Below, in pieces: positions 8,379 to 28,760 of a stretch of DNA of 64,000 nt. The DNA comes from Candidatus Undinarchaeota archaeon. Its GTDB lineage: Archaea > SpSt-1190 > JASMDC01. Numbering within the stretch: position 1 is the first letter of the stretch; each line of letters opens with the position of its first letter. The stretch lies in assembly GCA_964519305.1 (NCBI GenBank), contig CAZFHY010000004.1, forward strand, positions 1 through 64,000, written 5' to 3'. The notes beneath the pieces were generated by a model. The model worked only from the letters and a program-made list of their open reading frames with translations, was not told where the DNA came from and did not search any database. The translations under genes were made by a program, and so were the position numbers.

Positions 8379-9338
8379 ATGACGGATATCGCTGTTGTGG
8401 GGAACGTCTCCATGGACCGGGTTGGCTCCAGCGGTAACCTCGTGGACGCACAGGGGGGCGCCGCGGTGTACACCGCGATATCATCATCGCTCCTCAAGGG
8501 CGACACATGCCTCGTCGGCCGCATCGGCCGGGACTTCCGTCTCGACTATCTTCGGACTCTCAGGCGGGTCGGCATCGATCTGTCCGGTCTCAGGATCATC
8601 CCTGGAGGCCGCTCGACAAGGTTCACCATCGAGCACGACGCCTTCAAGGCGACCTACTGCGACTACGAGATCAACGTGGGCAACTCCCTCTGTCTCGATG
8701 ACATCCCTGCCCATGGACGGAACTCCCGCATCATCCACCTATGCCCCAACAGCCCCCGGCTCCAGGAGCGCTTCATCGAGGAGCTGGCGACGGGGAGCGC
8801 GGCGGTATCGCTCGACTCCATCTCCGCAGAGATATTCCGCGAACACTACGTGTTCACCAACAGGGTGTTCGCAAAAGCGGACTTCTACTTCCCCAACCGC
8901 GAAGAGGCGGTCATGCTCTACCGCTACCTCAAGGACGGCAAGCTCATGAGCGTGACGGAGGCAAAGGAAGCAGCAGGTGCGCTCACATCGCGCAAGCTCG
9001 TGCGCATCGCCGACCACCTCCAGCGGTTCTTCAAGGGGGTGCTCTGCCTCAAGTGCGACGAGCGGGGCGTGGTCGTCGCGGACGACGAGGTGATCTGGGA
9101 GATTCCTTCCTATGAGGTCACCAACGTCACAGATCCAACCGGTGCGGGCGACACATTCGCCGGCGCCTTCCTTGCCACGTATGCCCAGGAACAGGACGTG
9201 TACTACGCTGCGGTAAACGGATGCGCGGCAGCGTCCTTCGTTATCCAGGGCAACGGTATCGAGAACATGCTCACTACCTCCCACGAGGAAATCATGGAGG
9301 TCGCAGAGACCATCGGAGAGGGACGTAAATGGACCTGA
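8379..9338 (+). CDS. PfkB family carbohydrate/nucleoside kinase
   Basis: GG motif, PNxxE, DPTGAGDTFAGAF signature. Confidence 0.92.
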   Translation: MTDIAVVGNVSMDRVGSSGNLVDAQGGAAVYTAISSSLLKGDTCLVGRIGRDFRLDYLRTLRRVGIDLSGLRIIPGGRSTRFTIEHDAFKATYCDYEINVGNSLCLDDIPAHGRNSRIIHLCPNSPRLQERFIEELATGSAAVSLDSISAEIFREHYVFTNRVFAKADFYFPNREEAVMLYRYLKDGKLMSVTEAKEAAGALTSRKLVRIADHLQRFFKGVLCLKCDERGVVVADDEVIWEIPSYEVTNVTDPTGAGDTFAGAFLATYAQEQDVYYAAVNGCAAASFVIQGNGIENMLTTSHEEIMEVAETIGEGRKWT

Positions 9339-10231
9339 TTACAATCGGACACGCGGTCATCGACCGTATCATCTACCCCGACGGACGCGAGAAAGTACTG
9401 CCTGGAGGCTCGGCTCCTGCCGTGGCCACCTCGGCCGTCCAGCTAGGTCTGGAGACGGGGCTAGTCTCAGCCGTTGGCCCGGACTTCCCGAAGAACTGGA
9501 TCACCGACCTCGAGTACTACGGTATCGATACATCCGGGATCGCCAAGATCGAGGGCGAGTCCACGCGCATCGATTACTATTACAACGACAAAGGGGACGC
9601 GACATCGATCGAACTGGAAGAGGGTGTCTCCAAGAAGCTGGGGCCTTCCCTGGTGCCCGACTCTTACAAGGGAGCGTTCTTTGCGCACGTCTGCCCCATG
9701 CCCCCTGCACTCCAGTCGAAGTTCATCGGAGCGATGGACGGGGTCGCGAGTCTCGTGAGCCTCGACTTCAACCAGACCTATTCGAAGGTCTACGAGAAGA
9801 ATGGGATCAAGGGATTCCCCCGCCTCGGTTCGGTCGACCTGGCATTCCCTAACGAGTTCGAGGCCAGGGCCCTCGTCGGTAAGGACGATCTTGAAGCGTG
9901 CGCAGAGGCGTTCCACACCCAAGGTGTGGGCTGCGTGGTCATCACGATCGGAACAGGTGGCTGCATCGTCTACGATGGTATGAACCTACACACCATCCCC
10001 AGTCTCGACCTCCCCATCACCGATCCCACTGGATGCGGTGACGCGTTCATCGGAGGTTTCCTTGCACGGTACGCATCGAACGCGGACCCACTTTCCTCAG
10101 CGTTCGCCGGTTCGGCATTAGCTTCATTCGCCGTTGAGTCGCCCGGTTCCTGGTGTCCGCGTGTGGAGCCCAGGAAAGTGGAACAACGCGAGGCGCAGGT
10201 CAAGGAACTGTTCGAGAAGTCAAAGGAATGA
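9329..10231 (+). CDS. PfkB family carbohydrate/nucleoside kinase (second paralog)
   Basis: PGG, PNEFE, DPTGCGDAFIGGF; overlaps the previous gene by 10 bp. Confidence 0.92.
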   Translation: MDLITIGHAVIDRIIYPDGREKVLPGGSAPAVATSAVQLGLETGLVSAVGPDFPKNWITDLEYYGIDTSGIAKIEGESTRIDYYYNDKGDATSIELEEGVSKKLGPSLVPDSYKGAFFAHVCPMPPALQSKFIGAMDGVASLVSLDFNQTYSKVYEKNGIKGFPRLGSVDLAFPNEFEARALVGKDDLEACAEAFHTQGVGCVVITIGTGGCIVYDGMNLHTIPSLDLPITDPTGCGDAFIGGFLARYASNADPLSSAFAGSALASFAVESPGSWCPRVEPRKVEQREAQVKELFEKSKE

Positions 10232-10255: not shown

Positions 10256-10762
10256 CTATTCCTGGCTAACGATCCTGGTCACCCAGTCCTCTCCACTGAG
10301 GACCTCGATGTCCCTCCCCGGGACCGCGGCGAGCACGATGGATGCATTGGACTTACTTCCGATATACTTGGCACCTTTCGCATTGAAGTAGCCCTGGATG
10401 TCATCGGGCGCACCCTCGCTCACGTACACACCGACCACGTAGCTGGAATCAGGATCGCTGCTGACCTTTTCCGCCAAGGTAGGATCGATCTTAGGCTCAC
10501 CCATAGTGAGGAGGAAGGCCGCGGCGATGAGGGCCACCGCGACGACGGCCGCAACAGCTACCTGCTTTTTCTTGTCCTGCTTCGAGCCTGATGTGGATGT
10601 CGTCGCATGGGCGGGCTTGTCCCCGCTAACGACGCCCTCCTGGTACTGCCGGGTGTTCGCATAGGTCTTGTAGGTGTAGTAAGCGGGATAGTATTGTTGG
10701 TACTGGGAACGATCGTAGGTCCCCTGGCCATACCCGGACTGTCCGTACCCTCCCTGTTGCAT
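10256..10762 (-). CDS. Single-pass membrane protein: Tyr/Gln/Gly-rich N-terminus, small C-terminal domain resembling a subtilase propeptide
   Basis: MQQGGYGQSGYGQGTY..., KKKQ plus TM, then a ~65-aa alpha/beta domain. Start reassigned to ATG 10762. Confidence 0.6.
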   Translation of the reverse strand: MQQGGYGQSGYGQGTYDRSQYQQYYPAYYTYKTYANTRQYQEGVVSGDKPAHATTSTSGSKQDKKKQVAVAAVVAVALIAAAFLLTMGEPKIDPTLAEKVSSDPDSSYVVGVYVSEGAPDDIQGYFNAKGAKYIGSKSNASIVLAAVPGRDIEVLSGEDWVTRIVSQE

Positions 10763-10827
10763 GGTCTGCTCGATACACTGGATTCCATCAAGGAATTTAT
10801 AGCTTCGCATCCTTCGTGTGACCCGGG

Positions 10828-11910
10828 ATGACACGCAAAGGGGCTAGAGTTCCGTACGTGGTGAAGGTCGGTGGGTCCGTGCTCGCCACGCCGCGGGACA
10901 TCTGTCATGCGATCGAGAGCATTAACGATTCGCTCGGTCTTCCAGCCGTCATCGTCGTCTCGGCGATGAAGGGAGAGACGGACCGGCTCTTCTCGACCGC
11001 CTTGGGTGCCGGCATCACATCCCCCGATGCTGTGGACTCCATCGTCGCCCAGGGAGAGGTCACCACCTGTCGGATCCTGGGTGCAGCACTAGAGCACAGG
11101 GGCATCGATACAATAGTGCTCACTCCCTGCAACGGGGAATGGCCCATCATTACCGACGACCGCTTCGGTGACGCAACTCCGATCCTCGACAGAACGGACG
11201 CTGCTCTCGACATGGTCCGTGAGGCCCTCGACAAGGGTACCACTGTGGTCATGGCAGGCTTCCTCGGTATGACCGCGAACGGACGCATTACTACCCTCGG
11301 CCGCGGGGGGAGCGATCTGTCTGCCATACTGGTCGGGCGTCTCCTCGGGCTGCGCGTCGTTCTGGCAAAGGACGTGGACGGCTGCTATCCTGACGATCCC
11401 AAGGGAAAGGGAAGGAACGCCCGGTTCTCCACCATGAGCACAGAGGACCTCCTCGCTCTGGCAAAGGACGGCGCACCCATCGTCCAACGGAAAGCGCTGG
11501 ATTTCATCGACGAGGGCATGCAAGTATCGGTGACATGCCTCGACGACCTGCGGGGAGGTACGGTCGTTGAGACCAAGGCCTGCACTACGCTCGACGAGGT
11601 CCCGCCCTCGGGTCAGAGCGAGCTCGCTAGGCTCCGCGAGCGCCTCCGTGGCGTCGACCTCGCCATGGCTTCCCTCCTCGGGGAGCGCTTCCATGTGGCT
11701 CGGGATATCTACGAGATCAAGCAACGGTACGGGCTCTCCCTGCGTGTCCCGGACCAAGAGATCAAGAACACCGAGAACTTCACCGAGGCATGCGCACGCC
11801 TCGGACTCCCCCGGGAGCTTGGTACCTCCCTCATCCGGACGATCATCGACGAGTCGTTGCGGATCCAGCGTGTCCTCCAGCTGCGTGGAAGAGAGGATCA
11901 GTCGAACTGA
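10828..11910 (+). CDS. Aspartate kinase catalytic domain fused to an AroQ-type chorismate mutase domain
   Basis: VVKVGGS, VVSAM, TTLGRGGSD, KDVDG; C-terminal LRERL..VD....LL.ER....I..IK...E...ES..IQ. Confidence 0.85.
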   Translation: MTRKGARVPYVVKVGGSVLATPRDICHAIESINDSLGLPAVIVVSAMKGETDRLFSTALGAGITSPDAVDSIVAQGEVTTCRILGAALEHRGIDTIVLTPCNGEWPIITDDRFGDATPILDRTDAALDMVREALDKGTTVVMAGFLGMTANGRITTLGRGGSDLSAILVGRLLGLRVVLAKDVDGCYPDDPKGKGRNARFSTMSTEDLLALAKDGAPIVQRKALDFIDEGMQVSVTCLDDLRGGTVVETKACTTLDEVPPSGQSELARLRERLRGVDLAMASLLGERFHVARDIYEIKQRYGLSLRVPDQEIKNTENFTEACARLGLPRELGTSLIRTIIDESLRIQRVLQLRGREDQSN

Positions 11911-11978
11911 CCCGGATAGACCGCCGCTCGAAATAAGCTTTATATAAGCCTAGGGACTGAGTATTCATTGGAGTTCCG

Positions 11979-12920
11979 ATGTCTGCGGAGTGGGTGTACT
12001 ACACTTGTGCGGGTTGCGGCCACAGTGGTCGGTACAGCATGGACAATCCGACCCTTGCCTGCCCGAAGTGCGGCACTCCGACGACTGGGACGGGGGGCGC
12101 CACGCTCACCGATGAGATGCTCGGAGCCATGCCCGAGGTCCAGGACGACTCCGGCTGGGGAGACTACAGCGGCTCGAAGTGGACACCTGGAACAGCTACA
12201 TCACAAGCGTACCTACCGGAGGGACAGGGCCCCCCGCTCGCCCTCGAGGGGAGCCTGTTCTCGCAGGAGGCCAGCCTGGGGGGGGCCAAGATGGACGGCC
12301 TGGACCCGGGGGCCGAGAACGAGCTGGCAAAGATCTTCGCGGACGAGGACTCTGGCTCCGGCATGATGTCAGCGGTCATCATCTGCGCTTTCATCATGGT
12401 CCTCGGTCTGGCTATCGCCTACCAGTTCGCGTTCATCACCACCGTCAAGAAGCTCACCGCCGAGAAGGTGGCAGAGGGCATGGCGGGCGGCGACTGGGTG
12501 TTCGAGATGCAGTGCAAGAAGGCGCGTTACTGCAGCGGTCCGGTGGGACGATGCAAGGGTAAGCCAGAGGAACGGCTGTGCTTCATCATCGAGAACACCG
12601 GTAAGGCGCCCATCCCACCATCGGTGATCCAACATATGGCCATGGACTTCCATAAGGTAAAGGAGGGGATCAACGAGGTCGAGATCATCCCCTTCACCGA
12701 TATCTGGTTCCTGGAAGAGGAGGAATGTCACCGCCTCCCTGAATGCGACGGGTGCAAGAGCATCGGTACGAAGAAGACCTTCACGATCATGGTACCGACA
12801 GACTTCGTCGCCAACGACCTGGGCGAAATGTTCTATGAGCTCGAGACGGCCAAGGTCAAACCACGGGCAGAGATGACGAACACGGGCGTACCATGTACCG
12901 TCCGGTTCGAGTATCTGTGA
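11979..12920 (+). CDS. Zinc-ribbon + TM + Cys-rich extracellular domain protein
   Basis: CAGC...CPKC, acidic linker, one TM, IENTG beta-motif; TATA box at ~11939. Confidence 0.7.
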   Translation: MSAEWVYYTCAGCGHSGRYSMDNPTLACPKCGTPTTGTGGATLTDEMLGAMPEVQDDSGWGDYSGSKWTPGTATSQAYLPEGQGPPLALEGSLFSQEASLGGAKMDGLDPGAENELAKIFADEDSGSGMMSAVIICAFIMVLGLAIAYQFAFITTVKKLTAEKVAEGMAGGDWVFEMQCKKARYCSGPVGRCKGKPEERLCFIIENTGKAPIPPSVIQHMAMDFHKVKEGINEVEIIPFTDIWFLEEEECHRLPECDGCKSIGTKKTFTIMVPTDFVANDLGEMFYELETAKVKPRAEMTNTGVPCTVRFEYL

Positions 12921-12932
12921 GCTGGACGGACG

Positions 12933-14297
12933 TTATCCTTTCGTTATGATCCGCGGTCTCACTTGTGGGAGCAGGCCTGGAATGATCACACGGACCACGG
13001 GCATACCGATCTTGGGATGGGTGAGGTTGACGGCGATGACGTCGTACCCTCGAGACTCCAGCTCTCCCAGGAGCAGCTTCAGGTCATCGCACACGTCCGT
13101 GGTGGACCTGTCCAAGAATCTGTCAAGAGGAACGGAGCGTTTCGGCTTCTTGTTGGGCACCACGAGCTCGCACCCGGGCGTGCTAAGGGGAAGCTCCGCG
13201 ACGACTCGCTCCCCTGCGAGGTGGCTCTGGAACACACCTGCGGTCTGTACGAACTCCGTGACGGCGCGAAGGAGAGCATACTCGGGATCCAGATGGGTAC
13301 CGCCGGACACGACCACGTCGTACATGTCACCGATACGGTAGAAGAGAAGGGAAGAGAAGGTCGCTAGGTCGATTCCTGCGCTGTTCTCGTGAGTAAGTGT
13401 CATGGACCGCGCTCCGACCTCGCCCTTGCAGAGGTCGTTGAGGTAAGGATTGCGAGCTTCATCGACAGTGACCCCGGTGTGCCCCGTGAAGCTGCGCAGG
13501 TCAAGGGTGCGCATGTCGTTGAACTGGGCATCCCGTTCCAGCACCTCGGTGACGCCCATGAACACCGCCTCCTCCATGGTGTTCCCCGAGGCCAGCCCGT
13601 TTGAGCTACCGCCACCGAAGAGCTTGCGTCCGTCATCGTCCTCGATGTTCCATTCGAGGAGAACGAAGCAGGCAGGGACGAGCACCGGTTCGTCCTTGAT
13701 GAGGTTGTGGCCCGGGACCCAAAGGCTCAGGAGACTGTCCCTGACCATACCCCACTGTTCGGAGTCGAACGAGGCAGTGCGACCCTTGATCCCGTCCGAG
13801 AGCGTGCTCCCGCTCCCGGCGGCCCCCCGCCCGCCGGTCCGTGAGAACAGGTCCACCATGGCACGGTCGAAGTTACCGACACAATCCCATTGTGTAGGCC
13901 GGAGCGGTGGGACGAGCTCCGCCGGATGTATGGCGCGGTCCTCCACATCGTCCCATTTGGCGACCGTGATGAGGTCCTTCCGACGGTACATCTGTGACGA
14001 GTAACGTTCGATGAACTCCATGAGCCCGCTCGCCTTGGCCTGGACCATGGTGGGACCCTTCCCGAGGGTGCGCATGTACCGGCCCTCGCGCATCGACATC
14101 ACGTACACCGGGTAGCCGAACGAATATCGCTCATCGATCTTCTTGACCTCGAGCTTCCCCAGTCCCTCGATAACCCGCTCCGCCCGTGCCACCGTCTCCT
14201 CGGGATGGCAGACGCGGTGGGCGACGTCCGTGCAGACCTTGGGCGCCATCTTGAAATCGAATGCTGTGTCTTGTACGATGATACTTCCCCTTTCCAT
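12933..14297 (-). CDS. YcaO-family ATP-dependent peptide-backbone modifying enzyme
   Basis: PEET, GKG..QAKASGLMEFIERYS, SNGLASGN..EEA...EVLERDA, RAVTE, PVVRVIIPGL. Confidence 0.92.
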   Translation of the reverse strand: MERGSIIVQDTAFDFKMAPKVCTDVAHRVCHPEETVARAERVIEGLGKLEVKKIDERYSFGYPVYVMSMREGRYMRTLGKGPTMVQAKASGLMEFIERYSSQMYRRKDLITVAKWDDVEDRAIHPAELVPPLRPTQWDCVGNFDRAMVDLFSRTGGRGAAGSGSTLSDGIKGRTASFDSEQWGMVRDSLLSLWVPGHNLIKDEPVLVPACFVLLEWNIEDDDGRKLFGGGSSNGLASGNTMEEAVFMGVTEVLERDAQFNDMRTLDLRSFTGHTGVTVDEARNPYLNDLCKGEVGARSMTLTHENSAGIDLATFSSLLFYRIGDMYDVVVSGGTHLDPEYALLRAVTEFVQTAGVFQSHLAGERVVAELPLSTPGCELVVPNKKPKRSVPLDRFLDRSTTDVCDDLKLLLGELESRGYDVIAVNLTHPKIGMPVVRVIIPGLLPQVRPRIITKG

Positions 14298-15124: not shown

Positions 15125-15409
15125 TCAGCCAGCGTACTCTCGGACGATCTCTTCCATGGTGTCCCACCAGGCGGCCCGGGCCTTGCGACGCAGGCGCTCG
15201 TAATCGATGTCGACGTTCTTGTCGAACTTGTCGATCCATCCGGCGACCTCGAGCCCGATATCATCGTCCTGTGCCCCGAGCACCTTGAGCCATGTGTGGA
15301 GGGATTTCAGTGCCTCATAGATGCGTTCTCGCCACTCGGGAGCCGAGCGCTCCGAGATGAAGCTCAGGTTGTAGCCGATGATCAGAAATGCCATGTGCGC
15401 CTCGGCCAT
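15125..15409 (-). CDS. Hypothetical protein
   Basis: ~94-aa ORF divergent from the next gene. Confidence 0.5.
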
Positions 15410-15462
15410 GGTCATCGGTCAGTTGCCAAAGTTTTTATTTCTACGACCGTTGTCCCCGAACC

Positions 15463-17997
15463 ATGAAAGCAGTCGTCATGGCCGGAGGGAAGGGCACCCG
15501 GCTCCTCCCCGTAACCTGCGGCATCCCCAAACCGCTCGCCCACATCGTCAACAAGCCCATGCTCGTTCACATCATCGAGCTCCTGAAAAAGCACGGTATC
15601 ACTGACGTTATCCTCACTACACGATATCTCGCCGACCAGATCCAGGAGTTCTTCGGCGACGGCTCGGAGTACGGCGTGAACATCTCCTACTCCGTGGAGG
15701 AGAAAGCGTTGGGAACGGCCGGCGGTGTGAAGCTCGTCCACGACCAGCTGGACGACACGTTCCTCGTGCTCTCGGGCGACGTGCTCACCGACTTCGACCT
15801 CACCAAGCTCCTCGATTTCCACAAGAAGAACAAGGCCGCCGTGACCATCGGCCTCACGCGGGTGGAGAACCCGTTGGAGTACGGTATCGTGATCACCGAC
15901 CAGAACGGCCGCATCTCCCGGTTCCTGGAAAAGCCTGGTTGGAGCGAGGTGTTCAGCGACACAATCAACACCGGCACCTATGTCATCGAACCTCGAGTGT
16001 TCGAACGGCTTCCCGAGGGCAAGGTGCGCGATTTCTCAAAGGACCTCTTCCCCGAGCTTCTGAGCGACGGGGAGCCCATGTACGGCTACGTAGACGACTG
16101 CTACTGGCACGACGTTGGCAATCCCGAGAAATTCATCGTGGGCGCTCACGACGTCCTCACCGGCAAGGTGAAGGCAGAAGTGCCCGGAAAGGCCAAGGAG
16201 ATGGGCGGAGAATCCGTCTGGATCGGCAAGGACGCCATCATCGAGGAGGGCGCCATCATCCGAGGCCCATCGGTCATCGGTGACAACGTCATAATCTGCA
16301 AGGGCGCCGAGGTCGGTCCACTGGCGTCCATCGGCAACAACGTGACCATCGGGCCTGATGCACAGGTCTCCCGCTCAGTAGTGCTTGGCAACGCCCGCAT
16401 ACTCGAGGGTGCCGTGCTCCAGCGCTGCTGCGTATGCCCCGGCGTCAATGTCGGGTCCGGCGCCATCATCGAGCACGATGCGGTGGTCGGTGAGAACACG
16501 GTCGTCGGCCGCAAGAGCCACATCCATTCCGGCATCAAGCTCTGGCCAGGCAAGGTCGTCGAGCCCGGTGCTGTGGTGAACATGGACGTCAAGGTGGGCG
16601 TCACCTGGCTTCAGCACCTCTTCGGCGCCTCAGGCGTCACCGGTTCGGTGAACATAGAGATCACACCTGAGTTCGCCACCAGGCTCGGCGCCTCCATCGG
16701 CACGTTCCTGGGATCGGGCACACAGGTCATCATCGGACGCGACACACGCCTGTCCACCCGCATGATCAAGAGGGCCCTAGTGGCAGGGCTCTCCTCCGTC
16801 GGTGTGACGGCCATGAACGTCACCGTGGCACCCACACCGGTCATCCAGTACCTGGTCAACGCTTACGCTGCCAAGGGCGGTATCGCTGTCACCGGCGGCC
16901 ACAAGATGGGACAAGTGACCATCAAGGTGTTCGGCGACAACGGCAGGGACATCGACGAGGCCGAGAAGCGCAAGATAGAGGACATCTTCTTCAAGAGCGA
17001 CCTCAAGCGGGCGGAGCCCATGAACGTGGGCGACGTGGAGTTCCCGGCACGCTACCTCGACCGCTACCGGCGCAACATCAAGAAGCATCTGGACATCGAG
17101 TCGATCACCAAGCGCAGACCCCGGATCGTCGTGGACTGCGCAATGGGCGCGGGCTCAGTTATCGCCCCGCTCATCCTACAGGAGATCGGGTGCGAGGTGC
17201 TCTCGCTCAACGCCCAGGTGGGCACGGTTACCCAAGAGAGCCGACCGACACCCGAGGCACTCTCCCACCTCTCGAAGACGGTGAAGGCCCTCGGGGCGGA
17301 CTTCGGGGTCGCCTACGACCTTGACGCCGACAAGCTCATGTGCGTCACCGACGACGGACAGATCGTGATGGGGGACGTGCTTCTCGCGCTCATGGCCATG
17401 TGCCTGCTCAAGAAGGGCGAGAAGATGGTCGTGCCCGTCACCGCGTCGCTGGTCGTCGAGGAAGCAGCCCAGAAGGCCGGTGCCGAGATCATCCGTGCCA
17501 AGATGAGCCCGGCCGTGCTCGAGAGGACCATCATCGAGAGCGGTGCCGTGCTCGGCGGGGACGAACTGGGGGCATGCATCTTCCCGCAGTTCCAGCTCTC
17601 TAGGGACGGCATCCTGCTGGCGGCAAAGCTGGCCGAGATCGTGTCCGGCTACGACGAACCGCTCTCCAAGCTCGTGGAGAAGGTGCCCGTCACCAACGTG
17701 CTCCGCGACACGGTGGAGTGCCCGTGGGAGTACCGGGGACGCATCATGCGGACCATCATGGAGATGGCCGAGGGTAAGGAGATCGAGACGCTGGACGGTC
17801 TGAAGGTGTGGTTCGACGACGGATGGGTGCTCATCAGACCCGACGGATCGCGGCCCGTGTTCCACGTGATCTCCGAGTCAAAGGACAAGGACACCGCCAA
17901 GGAGTACCTCAACCGGTACAAGTCCTTCATCGAGGACGCCAAGTACGATCTCGATGTGGAGGAAGGCCGCGCCGAAGAGGACGAGGGCTCCTCATAG
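15463..17997 (+). CDS. Sugar-1-phosphate (mannose-1-P) nucleotidyltransferase fused to a phosphomannomutase-like domain
   Basis: [24 protein letters not shown], hexapeptide repeats, LFG..GV.G, GRDTR, WVLIRP. Confidence 0.92.
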
Positions 17998-22688: not shown

Positions 22689-25600
22689 TCACTCAGGTCC
22701 GGACCGGGCCACCCTGTCGAGGAGGGGTCCGAGCTTGTCGCCGAGACCGGTGCGCTTGAGGTAGACCTCGATGCGTTCCTGTTCGTCCAGGTCGAGGATG
22801 TAGCGTCCTGTCACCCCGAGCTTTTCGACGTGGCCCGTACCCATCAGCTTTTCGAGGTATGATGATGCCTTGCCGGCGTCGGGCGACCACAGCGCGCGGT
22901 CGAGGTCATCTGAGGTGATAGGTCCTCGGGAGAGCACCATCAGCACCTGGCCGAACTCTGAGAGCCGACGTGCCGCCAGTGGATCGTCGGTGCGGTTCAG
23001 GTCATCGAGCGTCCGGGCCAGTATACCGTCGCCCCGGATATCATCGGGATCGCGCATGTGGATGGCCTCTACTAGCTCCGTGTCCAGGATATCGCTCAGT
23101 CCCTGGTCGGCCGCAGGTCCGCTTGTTGTTGCCCTGGACACCGCATCCGGAGTGGATCGCGGCCGCACTTTCGCAAGCAGGGTGTCGAGGACCGGCGCCA
23201 GGTCGTCCCCGAGACCCGTACGGTCCAGGTAGTTCTCCATCCGTTCATGCTCCCCATGGGATAGGAGGTAGCGATCCGTCAGCCCGAGATGCTCCACGTA
23301 CCCGCCCTCCTCCAGGGCTCCGAGGTAGGTGCTCGCCCTGCCGGCCCCCTCGGACCAGAGCACGCGGTCGAGGTCCTCGGCCGTGATCGGGCCCCGGGAG
23401 AGCACGAGCAGCACCTGGTTGAGCTCGATGAGCTTACCCTCCGACTCGGGCCCTCTCGCCTGTCTGTGGTCCACGAGCATCCGGGCCAGGAGGCAGTTCC
23501 CAGCAAGGTTCTTTGTTGAGCGGTCGAAGAGCACTGCCTTGAGGACCGCCTCGAGTGCACCGGGACCCGGCCGTGGTGCCGGGGGCGGCGCCACCTTTTG
23601 AGGCGTGACCGGTCCCTCGGGCGGTCTTGGGAGCTTGCGTGACCTGAGCGCTTCGAGAGTGGCGGGTGGCTTGGGCGGTTTAGCCCAGGATAGGAACCGC
23701 TGCGCAAGGGCACGGATCTGACCGGTCCCTGGCTCGGACGGCGCACACTGCTCAGGTGGTGTCGGCTGCGGTTCCAGAAGACGGGGGCGCGGGGGTTTCG
23801 GAGGAGCGACCTTCTCCACCTTGGGAGGAGCAGGTGGGCGCTCCAGAAGACGGGGGCGCGGGGGCGTCGGAGGAGCGACCTTCTCCACCTTGGGAGGAGA
23901 GGGCGGGCGCTCCAGAAGACGGGGACGCGCCTTCGGGGGGACGATCTTATCGACCTTGGGAGGAGTAGGCGGGCGCTCCAGAAGACGGGGACGCGCCTTC
24001 GGGGGGACGATCTTATCGACCTTGGGAGGAGTAGGCGGGCGCTCCAGAAGACGGGGACGCGCCTTCGGGGGGACGACCTTATCGACCTTGGGAGGAGCAG
24101 GCGGACGTTCGAGCAGACGGGGGCGCGGGGGCTTTTGTGTAGCGACCTTCTTCGGCTTCGGCGGAACGGTATCGGTGCGCACCTTCTCGGGGCGGGGGAC
24201 CACAGGTGCGGGCTTCATCCCGGCGTGACCGAGCATCATGTCGATGACGGGTACGAGCCGCATATCGAGACCGATGCGTCCGAGGAAGGAGCCGACCGAC
24301 TCCCGTTCATCAGGCACCAGGGTATAGCGGCCGTCCTCGTCCCGGTCGGCGTAGCCCTTCATCTTCAGTGCTTCTAGATAGTACACACCCTTCCCGGCAC
24401 CTTCGCCCCAGAGGACACGGTCGAGCTGGTCCGCCGTGACAGGGGTCCGATATATCACAAGGTGAACACGGTACACCTCTGCCAGCTTGCGCATTGCCTC
24501 GACGTCGGTCGTCCGGACCCGTTCCCGGAACAGTTTGGAAAGGAGGCATTCACCCTTCAGTGCTTTGCCCGGGAGCTTGGCCAATGCCCGGTTCAGTTCG
24601 CGCTCGATTATGTTGGCGTATGTGTTGGTCGCCACCGCGGGGACTACTTTCTTCTCCTCCTTCACAATCTCCCGAGGCGGTGCTTCGATCTTCGGTCGCG
24701 GCCGCTCACTTACGCGCTTGACCATCTCGTCGAGCACCGGGTCGACTACCTTCCGGAGGCCGGTCCGGTCGAGGAACTTCCCCGTCGAGCGCCTCTGATG
24801 CACCGCAAGGACGTACCGACCCGTTCTTCCCATCCGCTCTACATGTCCGGCCTCCGTCAATGCTGCAAGGACCATGGTCGCCCTACCGTTCTCTTCCCAG
24901 ACCGCGTGGTCGACGTCGTCCTCGGCGATGGGCCCGCGGTCGAGCAGGAGCAGCACCTGCACCAGCTCGGACAGCGTTGTCTTGAGCCCTTCATTGGTAA
25001 CCTTGGCGCCGTCGGTGAGCACCATCGCTACCAACGACTTATCGCTGAGCGCATCACTCGGGAGCCGGGGTACGGCTTCTGAGAGCCTGTCGTCGAGGTC
25101 GAGCGAGAGTCGGGTCCTTGAACGTATGGCCCGGCCCGGGGCGACCGGTCCGACAGGTGAAGGTTCTTCCGAGATCATCCGACCCTTCGGCGGCTTGAAC
25201 CTGTCAGTAGTCGGACGCTTGGGTGGCTTGAATCGGGAGGGTGGGGAGGGTACGCTCTCGGGAATGATCGGTGTCGACGGCGTCGGCACGGTCGACGGAG
25301 GGGGCAGAGTCGGAACCGTCGGCGGGATGGGCGGAGTCGGCACGGTAGGCGGAGCGGGCGGTGTCGGTACGGTAGGCGGAGTGGGCGGTGTCGGCACGGT
25401 AGGCGGGATGGGCGGAGTCGGAACGGCAGTAGGTTCGATCACCTCGACAGAAGCAGGTGCCTCCGAGATAGTCCGGGCTTTCCGTGGCTTGAACCTGTCC
25501 GAATCTTCCGAGCCTTTCGGTGGCTTGAACCTGTCTAATCCTGTTCGCTTGGGCGGCTTGAAGCGGGATGGTTGGAGCGGTACCTCCTCAATAACAGTTT

Positions 25601-28600
25601 GTGTCGGCACCGCAAGTTCGCCCGTCGGTGTCGAAGGGATCGGAGACCGCGGGAGCTCCTTGACCATTTCCTCGACGATCTGGACGGGAAGCTGCCTCAC
25701 ACCAGCGTGCCTGAGCATCATGTCGAGCACAGGATCGAGACGCGCCTCGAGGGCGGTGCGCTGGAGGTAGGCCGTTGTCTTCCTCCGTTCATCCGGCACC
25801 AGGAAGGCACGCGCAGGCTCGCCACGACGCTCCAGATAACCCTTCGCCACGAGTGCGTCCATATAGGAGGCGCCCTTCCCCTTTCCCTCGTCCCACAGGA
25901 CACGGTCCAGTTCCGCTGCTGTGGCGGGCGTCCGGTAGAGCACGAGAAGGACCCTGTAGACCTCGCTGTACTTCTTGAGCTCCTCCGGACTCGTCGTCCG
26001 AGACCGGTCCGTGAACAATCTTGCCAGGAGGCACTTGTCCTCGATGCTCTCTGGTGAGAGTCTGGCGAGCCCACGGTTGATCTCGCGCTCGAGGACGTTG
26101 GCGAAGCTGCGGTGGGCCTCCCGGTATGCGGGACCTGTTGGAGCAACGGCCGGTTCGGCCTCGGCGGTCGTCTTCTCGGTCACACCGAGTATCATGTCGA
26201 GGACAGGATCGATGATCGAAAGGAGGTCCGTTCTGATAAGGTAGGCCGTGTTGTGCTCCTTCTCGTCGGGGCTGAGGAAGAAGCGTCCAGTAGCGGCCTC
26301 CTTGTCCAGATAGCCGCGGTCCAGTAGACCGTTGAGCAATGCTTCGCTACTCCCGACACCTTCCTCCCAGAGTAGCCAGTCGGCCTCCCCGGCCAGGAGC
26401 GGACCCCGCTGGAGTAGGAGCAGGAGCTGGTAGGTGGATACTATCTCGTCCGCAAGAGATGGATCCTCGACCTGGATACGTTGCAGGAAGAGGCGCGAGA
26501 GCAGGCAGTCGCCCATCAGTGCCTCCGGCGGCCGCTGGGAGAGCGTTCCCAATAGCTCCTGATCGAGCAGAATGGACAACCTGTTCCTGTGCGGGCGGCC
26601 TACTGCGACCTCCGCTCCTTCTGTCTCGCGTGTCGGACCTGTCTCTTCCAGACCACCGAGCATCATATCGATGACCGGCTCGACAACTGTCCCGAGTCCG
26701 GAAGCGGCCAGGAACGCAGAGACGCGCATACCCTCATCAGCGTTGAGACGGTACGAGCCCGTGAACCCGAGGCGTTCCACGTAGCCTTTCGCGGCCAGCG
26801 CCCGGATGAAGTGCATGGACCTGCCCTTACCAGTACGCCAGATCAGCGCGTTCATCTGCTTCGTCGACCGCGGGCCGCGGTGGAGCACTAATATCACTAT
26901 CGTGGCGTTGGCGAGCTCTCTGAGCATCTCCGGATCCTCGGAGGTGTAGCGTTCGCTGAGCATGTGCCCGAGCGATCCCGCTCCGTCCAGGTCCTTAGGC
27001 TCGCGGAACGATAATGCCTTTGCGAGCTCCTCGTCGAGCACGTGAGCAAGACGCCGCATGTCCGGATCTACCACCGGTTCGATCGGCTCTGCCCGCACCT
27101 CCTCCAGCACCTCGAAGTAGGTGGGCGCGACGATGGCGGGCCCCTCTTCGTCCTCCTCCACTCCTTTATGTCGGACCTTTACGTCGATGGCGTGCTTGAG
27201 CGTCGCCATGGTACCGATACCGATATCGCCTGTCAGCCCGTCCACCATGACGTTGATCTCGTCCTGCATGTCCTCCGCTTGGAGCCATCGCTTGAGTTTC
27301 GAGTGCTCCTCGGGTGTTAGTGAGTAGATACCGGTCGGCTCGTCCTTGAGCACGATGCCCAGCGGCATGATGAGCTCGGCGATAATAGGTCCGGCAAGGT
27401 CGGTGTCACTGCCCCATATGCCCTTGGAGAGCTCCGGTGAGGTCATGGGCGTGCGGTAGACCATCAGCACGATCTGGTGGGCCACCTCGTACGTCGCTGC
27501 GAGCTGTTCATCGCCCGAGTCCTTCATCCGGTGGGCCTGGGCCAGGAGCGCGGAGCAGCCGCACTGCATCTCGAGATACTTGATTCCCTTATCGAGCACC
27601 TTGTCCTTGAACTTGTCACCGACCTGGTCCATGGCCAGGGAGTATGCCTTCTTCCGGGCCAGCGTCTGGATGGCCTGGCCCCCCAGCGTCTGGAACGAGG
27701 TCGCAGCAGCTGATGCCGAGCCCGTCGATGCAGCCACCGAGGCCGCCGTGCTAGCTGCAGCTGTCCCTGCTGCAGTGACGGCCGCGGTACCTGCCGCGCC
27801 TGACGCCATAGTGGCCCCCGCTGCGGTCGCTGTAGTTATGCTCGCTGTCGTAGCGCCTGCTGCTGCTGCTGCGCTCGCAGCACCGGCCGCGGCACTGGCG
27901 CCAGCAGCGGCGCTCGCACCGGCAGCAGCTGCGCTCACGGCCTGCACGGCACCAACGCCCACAGCAACGGCGGCCGCTCCTGCAGCGGCGCTCTTCACAG
28001 GCTCCTTCCTCACCGTCTCCACGGCCTTGTCCACTGTCTCGTCGACCGTCTCCACGACGCTCCCGGCGGTCGATGCGGAGACGTTGGCAGCGTCACCCGC
28101 TTTCTTCCTAGCATAGGACACCCAGCCGCCAGCGGCCTCAGCCACCTTCTTGATTGGATCCGGGATGATGCTGTCCTCTTCCTCCTCCTCTTCGTCACGC
28201 TCCTTGAAGAAACCCGCGCTCCCGTCGGGCTGGAACTTCCAGTCGAAGGTCACCGAGCCCATCTTCCGGATCCCTACGACAGCATAGCACCCGGTATCGG
28301 TCCTGACCGCGTACACCTTCCCAGGCACTGCTGCCACGGGTGATCGCTTGTAGCCCGAGTCAGGGGCGAAGTTGACGTCCCTGAACGATACGTTGGTCAG
28401 TTCTATGAACCCGTCGAGCCCACCGGGCATGATGTGGGTGCCGTTGTAGGCGATGGCGCAGGACACCGTATCGAGCGGGATCCCGGACGCGTTGAACATC
28501 CCGCCCTTGGCGAGGACGAACACATCACCGCTCTTTTGGTGGTTGTGTATGGTCGCTTCACCGAAGCCCAGCTTCTCGATGAGCGGTGCCGCTGCGAGGA

Positions 28601-28760
28601 TCTCTCGATGGAGCACGGCCATCGGTGCGCAGGTTTGGTTAGCAAGGCAGCCCTCGCCCCGGGCACAGTCGGCGCTGGTGCAACACAAATCGTCAGCAAG
28701 GCATGTGTCACCGCACTTCCTGAAGCCGCCATCGCACTCGCGCGATCCCGTCTCCGGCCC
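22689..28760 (-). CDS. Giant surface/membrane protein, C-terminal part (Cys-rich module, QPDGS domain, Ala-rich segment, 8 winged-helix-like repeats, Pro-rich linkers)
   Basis: 1999-aa ORF from TTG 28688. The frame is open back to 28760 and there encodes ECDGGFRKCGDTCLADDLCC, homologous to the intact paralog, so it is probably not an independent gene. Confidence 0.85.
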   Translation of the reverse strand, partial: GPETGSRECDGGFRKCGDTCLADDLCCTSADCARGEGCLANQTCAPMAVLHREILAAAPLIEKLGFGEATIHNHQKSGDVFVLAKGGMFNASGIPLDTVSCAIAYNGTHIMPGGLDGFIELTNVSFRDVNFAPDSGYKRSPVAAVPGKVYAVRTDTGCYAVVGIRKMGSVTFDWKFQPDGSAGFFKERDEEEEEEDSIIPDPIKKVAEAAGGWVSYARKKAGDAANVSASTAGSVVETVDETVDKAVETVRKEPVKSAAAGAAAVAVGVGAVQAVSAAAAGASAAAGASAAAGAASAAAAAGATTASITTATAAGATMASGAAGTAAVTAAGTAAASTAASVAASTGSASAAATSFQTLGGQAIQTLARKKAYSLAMDQVGDKFKDKVLDKGIKYLEMQCGCSALLAQAHRMKDSGDEQLAATYEVAHQIVLMVYRTPMTSPELSKGIWGSDTDLAGPIIAELIMPLGIVLKDEPTGIYSLTPEEHSKLKRWLQAEDMQDEINVMVDGLTGDIGIGTMATLKHAIDVKVRHKGVEEDEEGPAIVAPTYFEVLEEVRAEPIEPVVDPDMRRLAHVLDEELAKALSFREPKDLDGAGSLGHMLSERYTSEDPEMLRELANATIVILVLHRGPRSTKQMNALIWRTGKGRSMHFIRALAAKGYVERLGFTGSYRLNADEGMRVSAFLAASGLGTVVEPVIDMMLGGLEETGPTRETEGAEVAVGRPHRNRLSILLDQELLGTLSQRPPEALMGDCLLSRLFLQRIQVEDPSLADEIVSTYQLLLLLQRGPLLAGEADWLLWEEGVGSSEALLNGLLDRGYLDKEAATGRFFLSPDEKEHNTAYLIRTDLLSIIDPVLDMILGVTEKTTAEAEPAVAPTGPAYREAHRSFANVLEREINRGLARLSPESIEDKCLLARLFTDRSRTTSPEELKKYSEVYRVLLVLYRTPATAAELDRVLWDEGKGKGASYMDALVAKGYLERRGEPARAFLVPDERRKTTAYLQRTALEARLDPVLDMMLRHAGVRQLPVQIVEEMVKELPRSPIPSTPTGELAVPTQTVIEEVPLQPSRFKPPKRTGLDRFKPPKGSEDSDRFKPRKARTISEAPASVEVIEPTAVPTPPIPPTVPTPPTPPTVPTPPAPPTVPTPPIPPTVPTLPPPSTVPTPSTPIIPESVPSPPSRFKPPKRPTTDRFKPPKGRMISEEPSPVGPVAPGRAIRSRTRLSLDLDDRLSEAVPRLPSDALSDKSLVAMVLTDGAKVTNEGLKTTLSELVQVLLLLDRGPIAEDDVDHAVWEENGRATMVLAALTEAGHVERMGRTGRYVLAVHQRRSTGKFLDRTGLRKVVDPVLDEMVKRVSERPRPKIEAPPREIVKEEKKVVPAVATNTYANIIERELNRALAKLPGKALKGECLLSKLFRERVRTTDVEAMRKLAEVYRVHLVIYRTPVTADQLDRVLWGEGAGKGVYYLEALKMKGYADRDEDGRYTLVPDERESVGSFLGRIGLDMRLVPVIDMMLGHAGMKPAPVVPRPEKVRTDTVPPKPKKVATQKPPRPRLLERPPAPPKVDKVVPPKARPRLLERPPTPPKVDKIVPPKARPRLLERPPTPPKVDKIVPPKARPRLLERPPSPPKVEKVAPPTPPRPRLLERPPAPPKVEKVAPPKPPRPRLLEPQPTPPEQCAPSEPGTGQIRALAQRFLSWAKPPKPPATLEALRSRKLPRPPEGPVTPQKVAPPPAPRPGPGALEAVLKAVLFDRSTKNLAGNCLLARMLVDHRQARGPESEGKLIELNQVLLVLSRGPITAEDLDRVLWSEGAGRASTYLGALEEGGYVEHLGLTDRYLLSHGEHERMENYLDRTGLGDDLAPVLDTLLAKVRPRSTPDAVSRATTSGPAADQGLSDILDTELVEAIHMRDPDDIRGDGILARTLDDLNRTDDPLAARRLSEFGQVLMVLSRGPITSDDLDRALWSPDAGKASSYLEKLMGTGHVEKLGVTGRYILDLDEQERIEVYLKRTGLGDKLGPLLDRVARSGPE
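23772..24132 (-). repeat. Coding tandem repeat, ~5.3 x 66-69 bp (PRLLERPPxPPKVxKxxPPxxR)
   Basis: Near-identical in-frame nucleotide units. Confidence 0.92.
25280..25430 (-). repeat. Coding tandem repeat, ~5 x 27 bp (PTPPxPPTV)
   Basis: In-frame Pro/Thr repeat, degenerate at synonymous positions. Confidence 0.85.

Follow-up and report, generated by a model that had tools for sequence, protein, structure and literature searches.

What is a chorismate mutase doing at the end of an aspartate kinase? The gene that raises this question lies in a 64,000-nucleotide stretch of the genome of a Candidatus Undinarchaeota archaeon (contig CAZFHY010000004.1, positions 1 to 64,000; hereafter, the window). 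A preliminary description, made from the letters of the DNA, had reported a single open reading frame with a complete aspartate kinase (AK) catalytic domain, no ACT repeats, and a C-terminal chorismate mutase (CM) domain of the AroQ type. That reading of the gene holds (Table 1). The Pfam amino-acid-kinase family (AA_kinase, PF00696) matches the N-terminal part with an E value of 1.7e-29 and 103.7 bits against a cut-off of 24.9, over profile positions 4-233 of 234, and CM_2 (PF01817) matches the C-terminal part with an E value of 5.6e-12 and 46.1 bits against a cut-off of 27, over profile positions 1-80 of 80; no ACT family from Pfam is found in the protein at E ≤ 1. Alignment to the two other aspartate kinases of the genome (AK-1 and AK-2) and to P0002 shows that the motif G-G-T-V-V-E, residues 243-248, marks the point at which canonical aspartate kinases enter their ACT region; in the fusion a linker of some 15 residues (about 249-263) stands there, and helix 1 of the CM domain comes next. 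Since the kinase is intact to its usual last motif and then passes through a linker into CM helix 1, the ACT region has been swapped for a CM domain cleanly, at the domain boundary. An orthologue in a genus-mate assembly (G001) and two other members of the same protein cluster (P0236 and P0238, both of which show the two domains) have an identical start and architecture, and the linker differs from that of the G001 orthologue by one non-synonymous and seven synonymous changes. At 360 aa the protein is small, and it looks soluble.

Table 1. Coordinates of the fusion gene, its parts, its upstream element, and the two other aspartate kinases of the genome
Feature	Position	Strand	Basis and remarks
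AK-CM fusion gene (whole)	10828..11910	+	ORF list; ATG start, 360 aa plus stop codon
Amino-acid-kinase (aspartate kinase catalytic) domain, residues 11-236	10858..11535	+	Pfam, PDB alignments, residue conservation
Kinase-domain end and linker in place of ACT entry	11536..11631	+	Alignment to AK-1, AK-2, P0002
AroQ (CM_2) chorismate mutase domain, residues 269-348	11632..11871	+	Pfam, genome scan, profile alignment to 1ecm
TTTATA element	10796..10801	+	Sequence; ~30 nt upstream of the fusion ATG
AK-1	C4:85281-86540		ACT_9/ACT_7; over NF005159 cut-off
AK-2	on C15		ACT_9/ACT_7/ACT; over TIGR00657 cut-off

The surroundings of the gene say little about its role. The TTTATA element ahead of the ATG sits between divergent genes, in a 65-bp intergenic region that hardly varies between this genome (G000) and G001 when the two are aligned; it is likely an archaeal TATA box, and we would assign it a promoter role. 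The gene 3′ of the fusion carries a TATA-like element of its own. Two PfkB kinases, one YcaO protein, and two proteins without a family over the Pfam cut-off are the neighbors of the fusion, and no aromatic or aspartate-family gene was found adjoining it, so the neighborhood lends no functional support.

Aspartate kinase and chorismate mutase do meet in one pathway if aromatic biosynthesis begins from aspartate semialdehyde (ASA), as the preliminary description had supposed, and that route is present here. The assembly (3.63 Mb in 42 contigs, 99.83% complete, with 4.29% contamination) encodes ADH synthase (340.4 bits against a cut-off of 299.45), with DHQ synthase II and EPSP synthase immediately after it, as well as chorismate synthase and prephenate dehydratase; the contig of the window also carries ASA dehydrogenase. 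For DAHP synthase there is no match to either class (PF00793, PF01474) in this 99.83%-complete genome. ADH synthase is encoded in G001 too. A published account (PMC8305020), which has White 2004 in its reference list, names ASA as the precursor of aromatics in such archaea. The genome also encodes the archaeal, GHMP-type shikimate kinase (216.3 bits against a cut-off of 126.85), and an AroK-type SKI was not found in it; with the archaeal enzyme present, the idea that the fusion kinase replaces a missing shikimate kinase is ruled out. Seven AA_kinase genes occur in the genome, three of them aspartate-kinase-like, namely AK-1, AK-2, and the fusion, and G001 carries the same three. As the other two bear ACT domains, the fusion stands as a third isozyme. 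Homoserine dehydrogenase and DHDPS are present for the classical aspartate branches.

The preliminary description had also invoked the DAHP synthases that carry a CM domain as a sensor, and these are indeed a documented precedent, in PMC8408635 and in PDB entries. Because ASA feeds the aromatic pathway in this organism, because the genome has the three-isozyme pattern, and because the DAH7PS-CM precedent exists, we lean toward the view that the fusion is a third AK isozyme, belonging to the aromatic branch, which senses chorismate or prephenate through its CM domain and probably is CM-active as well. The kinase domain would phosphorylate aspartate and thereby supply ASA to ADH synthase, with which the ASA-dependent aromatic pathway begins, while the AroQ domain would take over the role of the ACT region and dimerize the enzyme. 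The CM domain would bind chorismate or prephenate in a largely intact site, probably still converting the one to the other, and occupancy of that site would be passed to the kinase, such that the supply of ASA would be throttled when the aromatic branch point fills. AroQ domains are obligate, intertwined dimers of three-helix protomers. Since AK dimers form through their ACT domains, as passages of PMC4142519 describe, a CM domain put in the place of ACT would restore dimerization. We infer here the AK activity, the CM activity, dimerization through the CM domain and, above all, allosteric coupling between the two halves. A more specific form of the proposal, in which a CM-sensed and still catalytic dimer sets the kinase activity, possibly with reciprocal activation of the CM by aspartate and ATP, is attractive, and in our estimate it falls a little short of an even chance.

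Whether the CM domain could play such a part depends in the first place on its active site. The profile of the CM part aligns gaplessly to 1ecm (the E. coli CM, EcCM) over positions 1-97, so EcCM residue numbers can be applied directly; the alignment also lends indirect support to a three-helix, dimeric AroQ fold for the domain. We take the EcCM active site to comprise R11′, R28, K39, D48, R51, E52, S84, and Q88. Six of these eight positions are kept in the fusion, with R270, R287, K298, E311, S343, and Q347 corresponding to R11, R28, K39, E52, S84, and Q88, and all six residues are invariant among the six members of the cluster. The remark in the preliminary description that one Arg appears as Gln, in a PDQE motif, is borne out by Gln310 at the position of Arg51, and a further departure absent from that description, Asp48 to Val307, brings the changed positions to two of eight, with the loss of two polar residues. 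V307 and Q310 are common to all six members, except for V307A in one. Among 19 aligned database CMs, the R51 column holds V, T, or Q in 5 and the D48 column is not Asp in 10, so neither residue seems to be strictly required. The solved structures nearest to the C-terminal part are chorismate mutases. No NCBIfam CM cut-off is reached by the fused domain, the best match being TIGR01791 (CM_archaeal) at 36.5 against 66.95. Judged by its residues, the site looks able to bind chorismate or prephenate, and the domain is probably CM-active also.

An active mutase need not be a sensor. Both domains might simply be catalytic, without allosteric coupling, and the fusion might provide only co-expression and a fixed stoichiometry; the fused domain may then be the main chorismate mutase of the cell. 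This is the alternative that we take most seriously, and we consider it unlikely, though far from negligible. Much turns on a stand-alone CM of 94 aa encoded two genes upstream of TrpE-TrpG. That protein keeps R11, R28, K39, and R51 and departs at D48Q, E52M, S84A, and Q88E, whereas the fused domain keeps K39, E52, S84, and Q88; with four departures in the stand-alone protein, the fused domain may be the main mutase, which would favor two uncoupled activities. The same is suggested by the best NCBIfam matches, an archaeal CM model for the fused domain and a 'CM-like' subfamily for the stand-alone protein (65.7 against a cut-off of 73.35), both below cut-off; by the genome, in which neither an AroH mutase nor a CM fused to prephenate dehydratase was found; and by the purifying selection on both domains, described below. 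Yet the stand-alone protein has the higher CM_2 score (86.3 bits, as against 49.6 bits for the fused domain in the genome-wide scan), and this score, together with its position just upstream of TrpE/TrpG, makes a separate housekeeping CM plausible. Moreover, loss of the ACT region with no substitute control would leave an unregulated isozyme. Nor does mutase activity count against sensing, for the fused CM of the DAH7PS-CM from Prevotella acts both as a catalyst and as an allosteric element (PMC8408635).

The proposal of an aromatic-branch sensor also requires a kinase that still acts on aspartate. Equivalents of K8, E119, R198, and D202 of E. coli AKIII are present in the fusion as K13, E77, R159, and D163, and all four are kept in 6/6 cluster members; in AKIII, passages of PMC4142519 give K8 and D202 roles in catalysis and have E119 and R198 bind the α-amino and α-carboxylate groups of aspartate. 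The full T-T-L-G-R-G-G-S-D motif is present in the kinase domain, the solved structures nearest to the N-terminal part are aspartokinases (5yei, 3aaw, 3ab4, 3c1m, and 2hmf), and the best NCBIfam matches of the fusion all are aspartate kinase models. None of the NCBIfam AK cut-offs is reached (best NF005159, 173.7 against 379; TIGR00657, 150 against 208.7), in large part because the models extend over the ACT region that the fusion lacks. Of the 47 columns in which at least 90% of 50 canonical AKs agree, the fusion keeps 37. Four of the 10 missed columns are ACT positions aligned against the CM domain, two come from a misalignment at G244-T245, and four are real changes: T to L164, A to L175, E to R176, and K to P217. 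Pro217 is found in all six members, at a column where at least 90% of the 50 AKs have Lys. This lysine belongs to the G-[AS]-K-[VI]-L motif, is present in all five aligned solved AKs, and corresponds to AKIII Lys257, which passages of PMC3282753 count among active-site target residues.

A quick tree gives the fusion kinase a very long branch, of 2.11 changes per column, within a clade of 20 rows (support 99) that also includes AK-2 of the same genome (branch 1.53). The tree has 56 rows, made up of the six fusion members, AK-1, AK-2, and 48 database AKs hand-picked from the best 120 of 1,595 whole-protein matches, and it uses the columns of query residues 1-245. Because two long branches make a sister relation between the fusion and AK-2 unsafe, we claim neither a donor nor a duplication.

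Could the kinase have shifted from aspartate to some other carboxylate, such as an intermediate of aromatic or secondary metabolism, with the CM domain marking the pathway concerned? The very long branch, the four changes at conserved AK columns, including Lys to Pro217, and the failure to reach any NCBIfam AK cut-off are what such a shift might produce. We nevertheless find it improbable, given that the residues with transfer and aspartate-binding roles in AKIII (PMC4142519, in the passages cited above) persist in every member, that the full motif is retained and the best NCBIfam matches all are AK models, and that the obvious candidate for a missing kinase is excluded by the archaeal shikimate kinase.

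Comparison of the two genus-mates bears on the importance of each domain. Between G000 and G001, 13.6% of the nucleotides of the fusion gene have changed, with dS about 0.55, and the differences are mostly synonymous. With a Nei-Gojobori script applied to this pair, omega is 0.095 for kinase residues 1-245 (bootstrap 0.059-0.15) and 0.056 for CM residues 264-350 (bootstrap 0.008-0.141, an interval that overlaps that of the kinase part). Both domains are under strong purifying selection. Among the six cluster members, 41 of 245 kinase columns and 10 of 87 CM columns are variable.

These figures are relevant to the suggestion that the CM domain is a structural stand-in for ACT, a dimerization handle with no role for a ligand. 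The suggestion is consistent with the usual formation of AK dimers through ACT (PMC4142519, in the same passages) and with the obligate dimers of AroQ domains noted earlier. A mere handle would have no need of active-site residues, however, and six of these are invariant in 6/6 members; omega for the CM domain is no higher than for the kinase, with overlapping bootstrap intervals. We think a purely structural role at least as improbable as a change of substrate, and rate both as less likely than a bifunctional enzyme without coupling.

The preliminary description had allowed that the fusion might be a sequence artefact. It is genuine. The full-length orthologue in G001 is 91% identical over residues 1-358, in a gene order that resembles that of the window. 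At 90% clustering the protein has six members on 37 contigs (13, 15, 1, 4, 3, and 1), which public records name automatically as either 'chorismate mutase' or 'aspartate kinase.' The stretch is present in eight DNA runs from two studies, with no RNA run listed among them, which speaks neither for nor against expression, and in all four runs checked, drawn from both studies, one contig each covers positions 10600-12100 with 0 differences and no joints, although these runs may include the source DNA. A joining of two genes by assembly or gene calling, for which we found no support beyond the fact that the data are metagenome-assembled genomes, is thus exceedingly improbable in the face of one uninterrupted frame, a G001 fusion that differs mostly at synonymous sites, six members on many contigs, and contigs from two studies that bridge the gene.

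How widespread is the architecture? A word-based search of 5.8 billion clusters with the whole protein gave 1,595 matches; among the best 120, which were listed, none outside the protein's own cluster combined PF00696 with PF01817, and the next match listed beyond that cluster had 42% identity, in the kinase part only. With residues 240-360 as query, the word-based search of the same 5.8 billion clusters weighed 821 candidates and kept 1 protein. When residues 246-360 were run by phmmer against 1.84 billion representatives, 116 proteins scored E ≤ 1e-3, and at E ≤ 1e-10 nothing but the protein's own cluster remained; no AA_kinase domain was found in eight of the 116 that were scanned for being longer or unusually laid out. 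Among the CM matches only P0227 likewise places its CM at the C-terminus in a comparable position, and it has no AA_kinase match; its CM lies at 256-334 of 356 aa, and its N-terminal part gives DAHP_synth_1 with an E value of 5.1e-4 and 19.5 bits, below the cut-off of 25.5. When one genome per GTDB species was scanned with a pattern (185,579 species), the fusion of G001 alone, of the 80 loci kept, matched over its full length, and a search of 40 related genomes gave no match spanning both domains in any genome except G001. A candidate second fusion in a deltaproteobacterium (L095), which matches query residues 11-338, is an ordinary AK with ACT, ACT_7, and ACT_9. In a sample of 17 genomes of the phylum, aspartate-kinase matches occur only in the two genomes of the fusion's genus. 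The genomes of this genus in the sample measure 3.6-3.8 Mb and the others 0.6-1.2 Mb.

In the searches run, the AK-CM architecture has so far turned up only in a single genus of uncultured marine archaea; an independent fusion whose CM is distant from this one (E > 1e-3), or which ranks below the best 120 of 1,595 matches, would escape these searches. The preliminary description had looked to a search for AA_kinase with CM_2 and had spoken of an archaeal analogue of the CM-regulated DAHP synthases. The pathway premises and the precedent for such an analogue are upheld, but not its breadth, the sequence searches having found the architecture in this genus only, and we regard that interpretation as partly supported.

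We did not find an AK-CM fusion described in a literature search, and in a literature search on the ASA-dependent route we did not find control of flux into the route addressed. What is new is a combination of known domains, and of a known regulatory idea on a new partner fold, that our literature search did not find described. If the CM domain does regulate the kinase, the fusion would reveal what governs flux into the ASA-dependent aromatic route, and would represent a second, convergent or independent recruitment of a catalytic CM as an allosteric module, on an unrelated fold. AK would effectively be the first controllable aromatic step in ASA-using archaea, with a dedicated feedback loop created by the exchange of ACT for CM, and this would be the first regulatory link from the aromatic branch point to the aspartate pathway. 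Such a natural exchange of the regulatory module of AK would also be of interest for feedback-resistant or re-wired amino-acid producers; regulatory-domain exchange reportedly has been tried already in the laboratory, to go by one reference title.

Among known systems, the ACT-regulated aspartate kinases (E. coli AKI, AKII, and AKIII, Corynebacterium LysC, and the Methanocaldococcus AK) share with the fusion the catalytic domain and the catalytic and substrate residues. They too occur as several isozymes per cell, each answering a different branch, and two ACT-bearing AKs are found beside the fusion here. The fusion differs in having an all-helical AroQ domain instead of ACT and Pro in place of the G-A-K-V lysine, and in falling below every NCBIfam equivalog cut-off. 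The Ask_Ect enzyme of ectoine clusters is a pathway-dedicated AK with an ACT-type tail, clustered with the genes of its pathway. Like the fusion as we propose it, Ask_Ect is an extra AK isozyme for one ASA-consuming pathway; unlike it, the fusion has a CM tail and is unclustered. The P-protein (CM-prephenate dehydratase), the T-protein (CM-prephenate dehydrogenase), and exported CM-cyclohexadienyl dehydratases also join an AroQ domain to an enzyme of the same pathway, and T-protein-like sequences (P0124, P0127, and P0139) are among the nearest CM relatives in the phmmer matches. All of these, however, join consecutive steps after chorismate, whereas the fusion studied here links the branch point with a step that precedes entry into the pathway. 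Rare CM fusions are still being described (PMC10520331).

The nearest parallel is with DAH7PS-CM, in which, as here, an AroQ domain is carried by an enzyme that feeds the beginning of the aromatic pathway. CM domains throttle DAHP synthase in Bacillus, Geobacillus, Porphyromonas, and Prevotella. In type Iβ DAH7PS the domain is C-terminal in Prevotella nigrescens and Porphyromonas gingivalis and N-terminal in Geobacillus, Listeria, and Bacillus subtilis AroA. In B. subtilis a separate CM gene exists and the fused CM is mainly a sensor; the genome studied here likewise has a separate CM gene. In the Prevotella enzyme, prephenate bound to the fused CM inhibits DAH7PS and the substrates of the partner reciprocally activate the CM (PMC8408635). 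DAH7PS-CM entries in the PDB (3nvt/3tfc, 5j6f, 2d8d, and 5gmu) matched the CM profile of the fusion, and P0227, one of the 116 CM matches, resembles this class in its C-terminal CM and its weak, sub-threshold DAHP_synth_1 match. The partner of the fused CM, however, is an AK of the amino-acid-kinase fold rather than a TIM-barrel DAHP synthase, in a genome without DAHP synthase. Two steps before ADH synthase, the committed enzyme of the aromatic route, the kinase also supplies a precursor pool that is shared; as it is not itself the committed step, its likeness to DAHP synthase is imperfect. The fusion is an analogue of DAH7PS-CM, not a member of that class.

At residue 217 the fusion protein (AA_kinase joined to an AroQ chorismate mutase domain) has proline instead of the G-A-K-V motif lysine. 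That lysine is shared by at least 90% of a set of 50 aspartate kinases and by each of the five solved aspartate kinases aligned, whereas the proline is present in every one of the six near-identical database proteins that make up its cluster. Neither of the genes that flank the fusion encodes a protein with a Pfam family over cut-off; the sole match of the upstream, divergently transcribed one is faint, archaeal-flagellin-like and under cut-off (E 0.0063). ORFs of similar size occupy the positions of both flanking genes in G001, the genus-mate assembly.

The order and lengths of the tandem PfkB-family genes, which overlap by 10 nt, are likewise found among the ORFs of G001, and neither kinase reaches an NCBIfam equivalog cut-off. 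Farther downstream, the 869-aa protein joins an NTP_transferase domain and hexapeptide repeats to a complete phosphoglucomutase/phosphomannomutase (domains I-III).

Features in the window (C4:1-64000 of genome G000) and the stand-alone chorismate mutase elsewhere in that genome (L107, the locus of that gene)
Feature	Position	Strand	Remark
PfkB-family sugar kinase, first of tandem pair	window 8379-9338	+	
PfkB-family sugar kinase, second of tandem pair	window 9329-10231	+	
Upstream divergent flanking gene	window 10256-10762	-	Gln/Tyr/Gly-rich protein
Codon 217 of the fusion	window 11476-11478		Pro in place of G-A-K-V motif Lys
Downstream flanking gene	window 11979-12920	+	313-aa protein
YcaO-family protein	window 12933-14297	-	191.9 bits
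Sugar-nucleotidyltransferase/phosphomutase fusion	window 15388-17997	+	869 aa
ORF	window 22689-28688	-	1,999 aa
Stand-alone AroQ chorismate mutase	G000:C11:82987-83271 (= L107:6988-7272)		

The genome that carries the fusion is 3.63 Mb in size and 99.8% complete. No aspartate-kinase match was found in the 15 phylum-sample genomes from outside the genus, which range from 0.6 to 1.2 Mb. Taxonomic labels differ among the records, the genus-mate being entered as Candidatus Undinarchaeales and one member of the fusion cluster as "Methanopyri archaeon." Either the lineage, which is known for genome reduction, has a large-genome outlier here, or the placement of this organism is unsettled.

TrpE and TrpG are encoded two genes downstream of the stand-alone AroQ gene. 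Its product may be a mutase or may have an isochorismate-lyase-like activity; its top NCBIfam match, under cut-off, is the "CM-like" subfamily, and at the positions of the E. coli chorismate mutase it carries Gln for D48, Met for E52, Ala for S84 and Glu for Q88.
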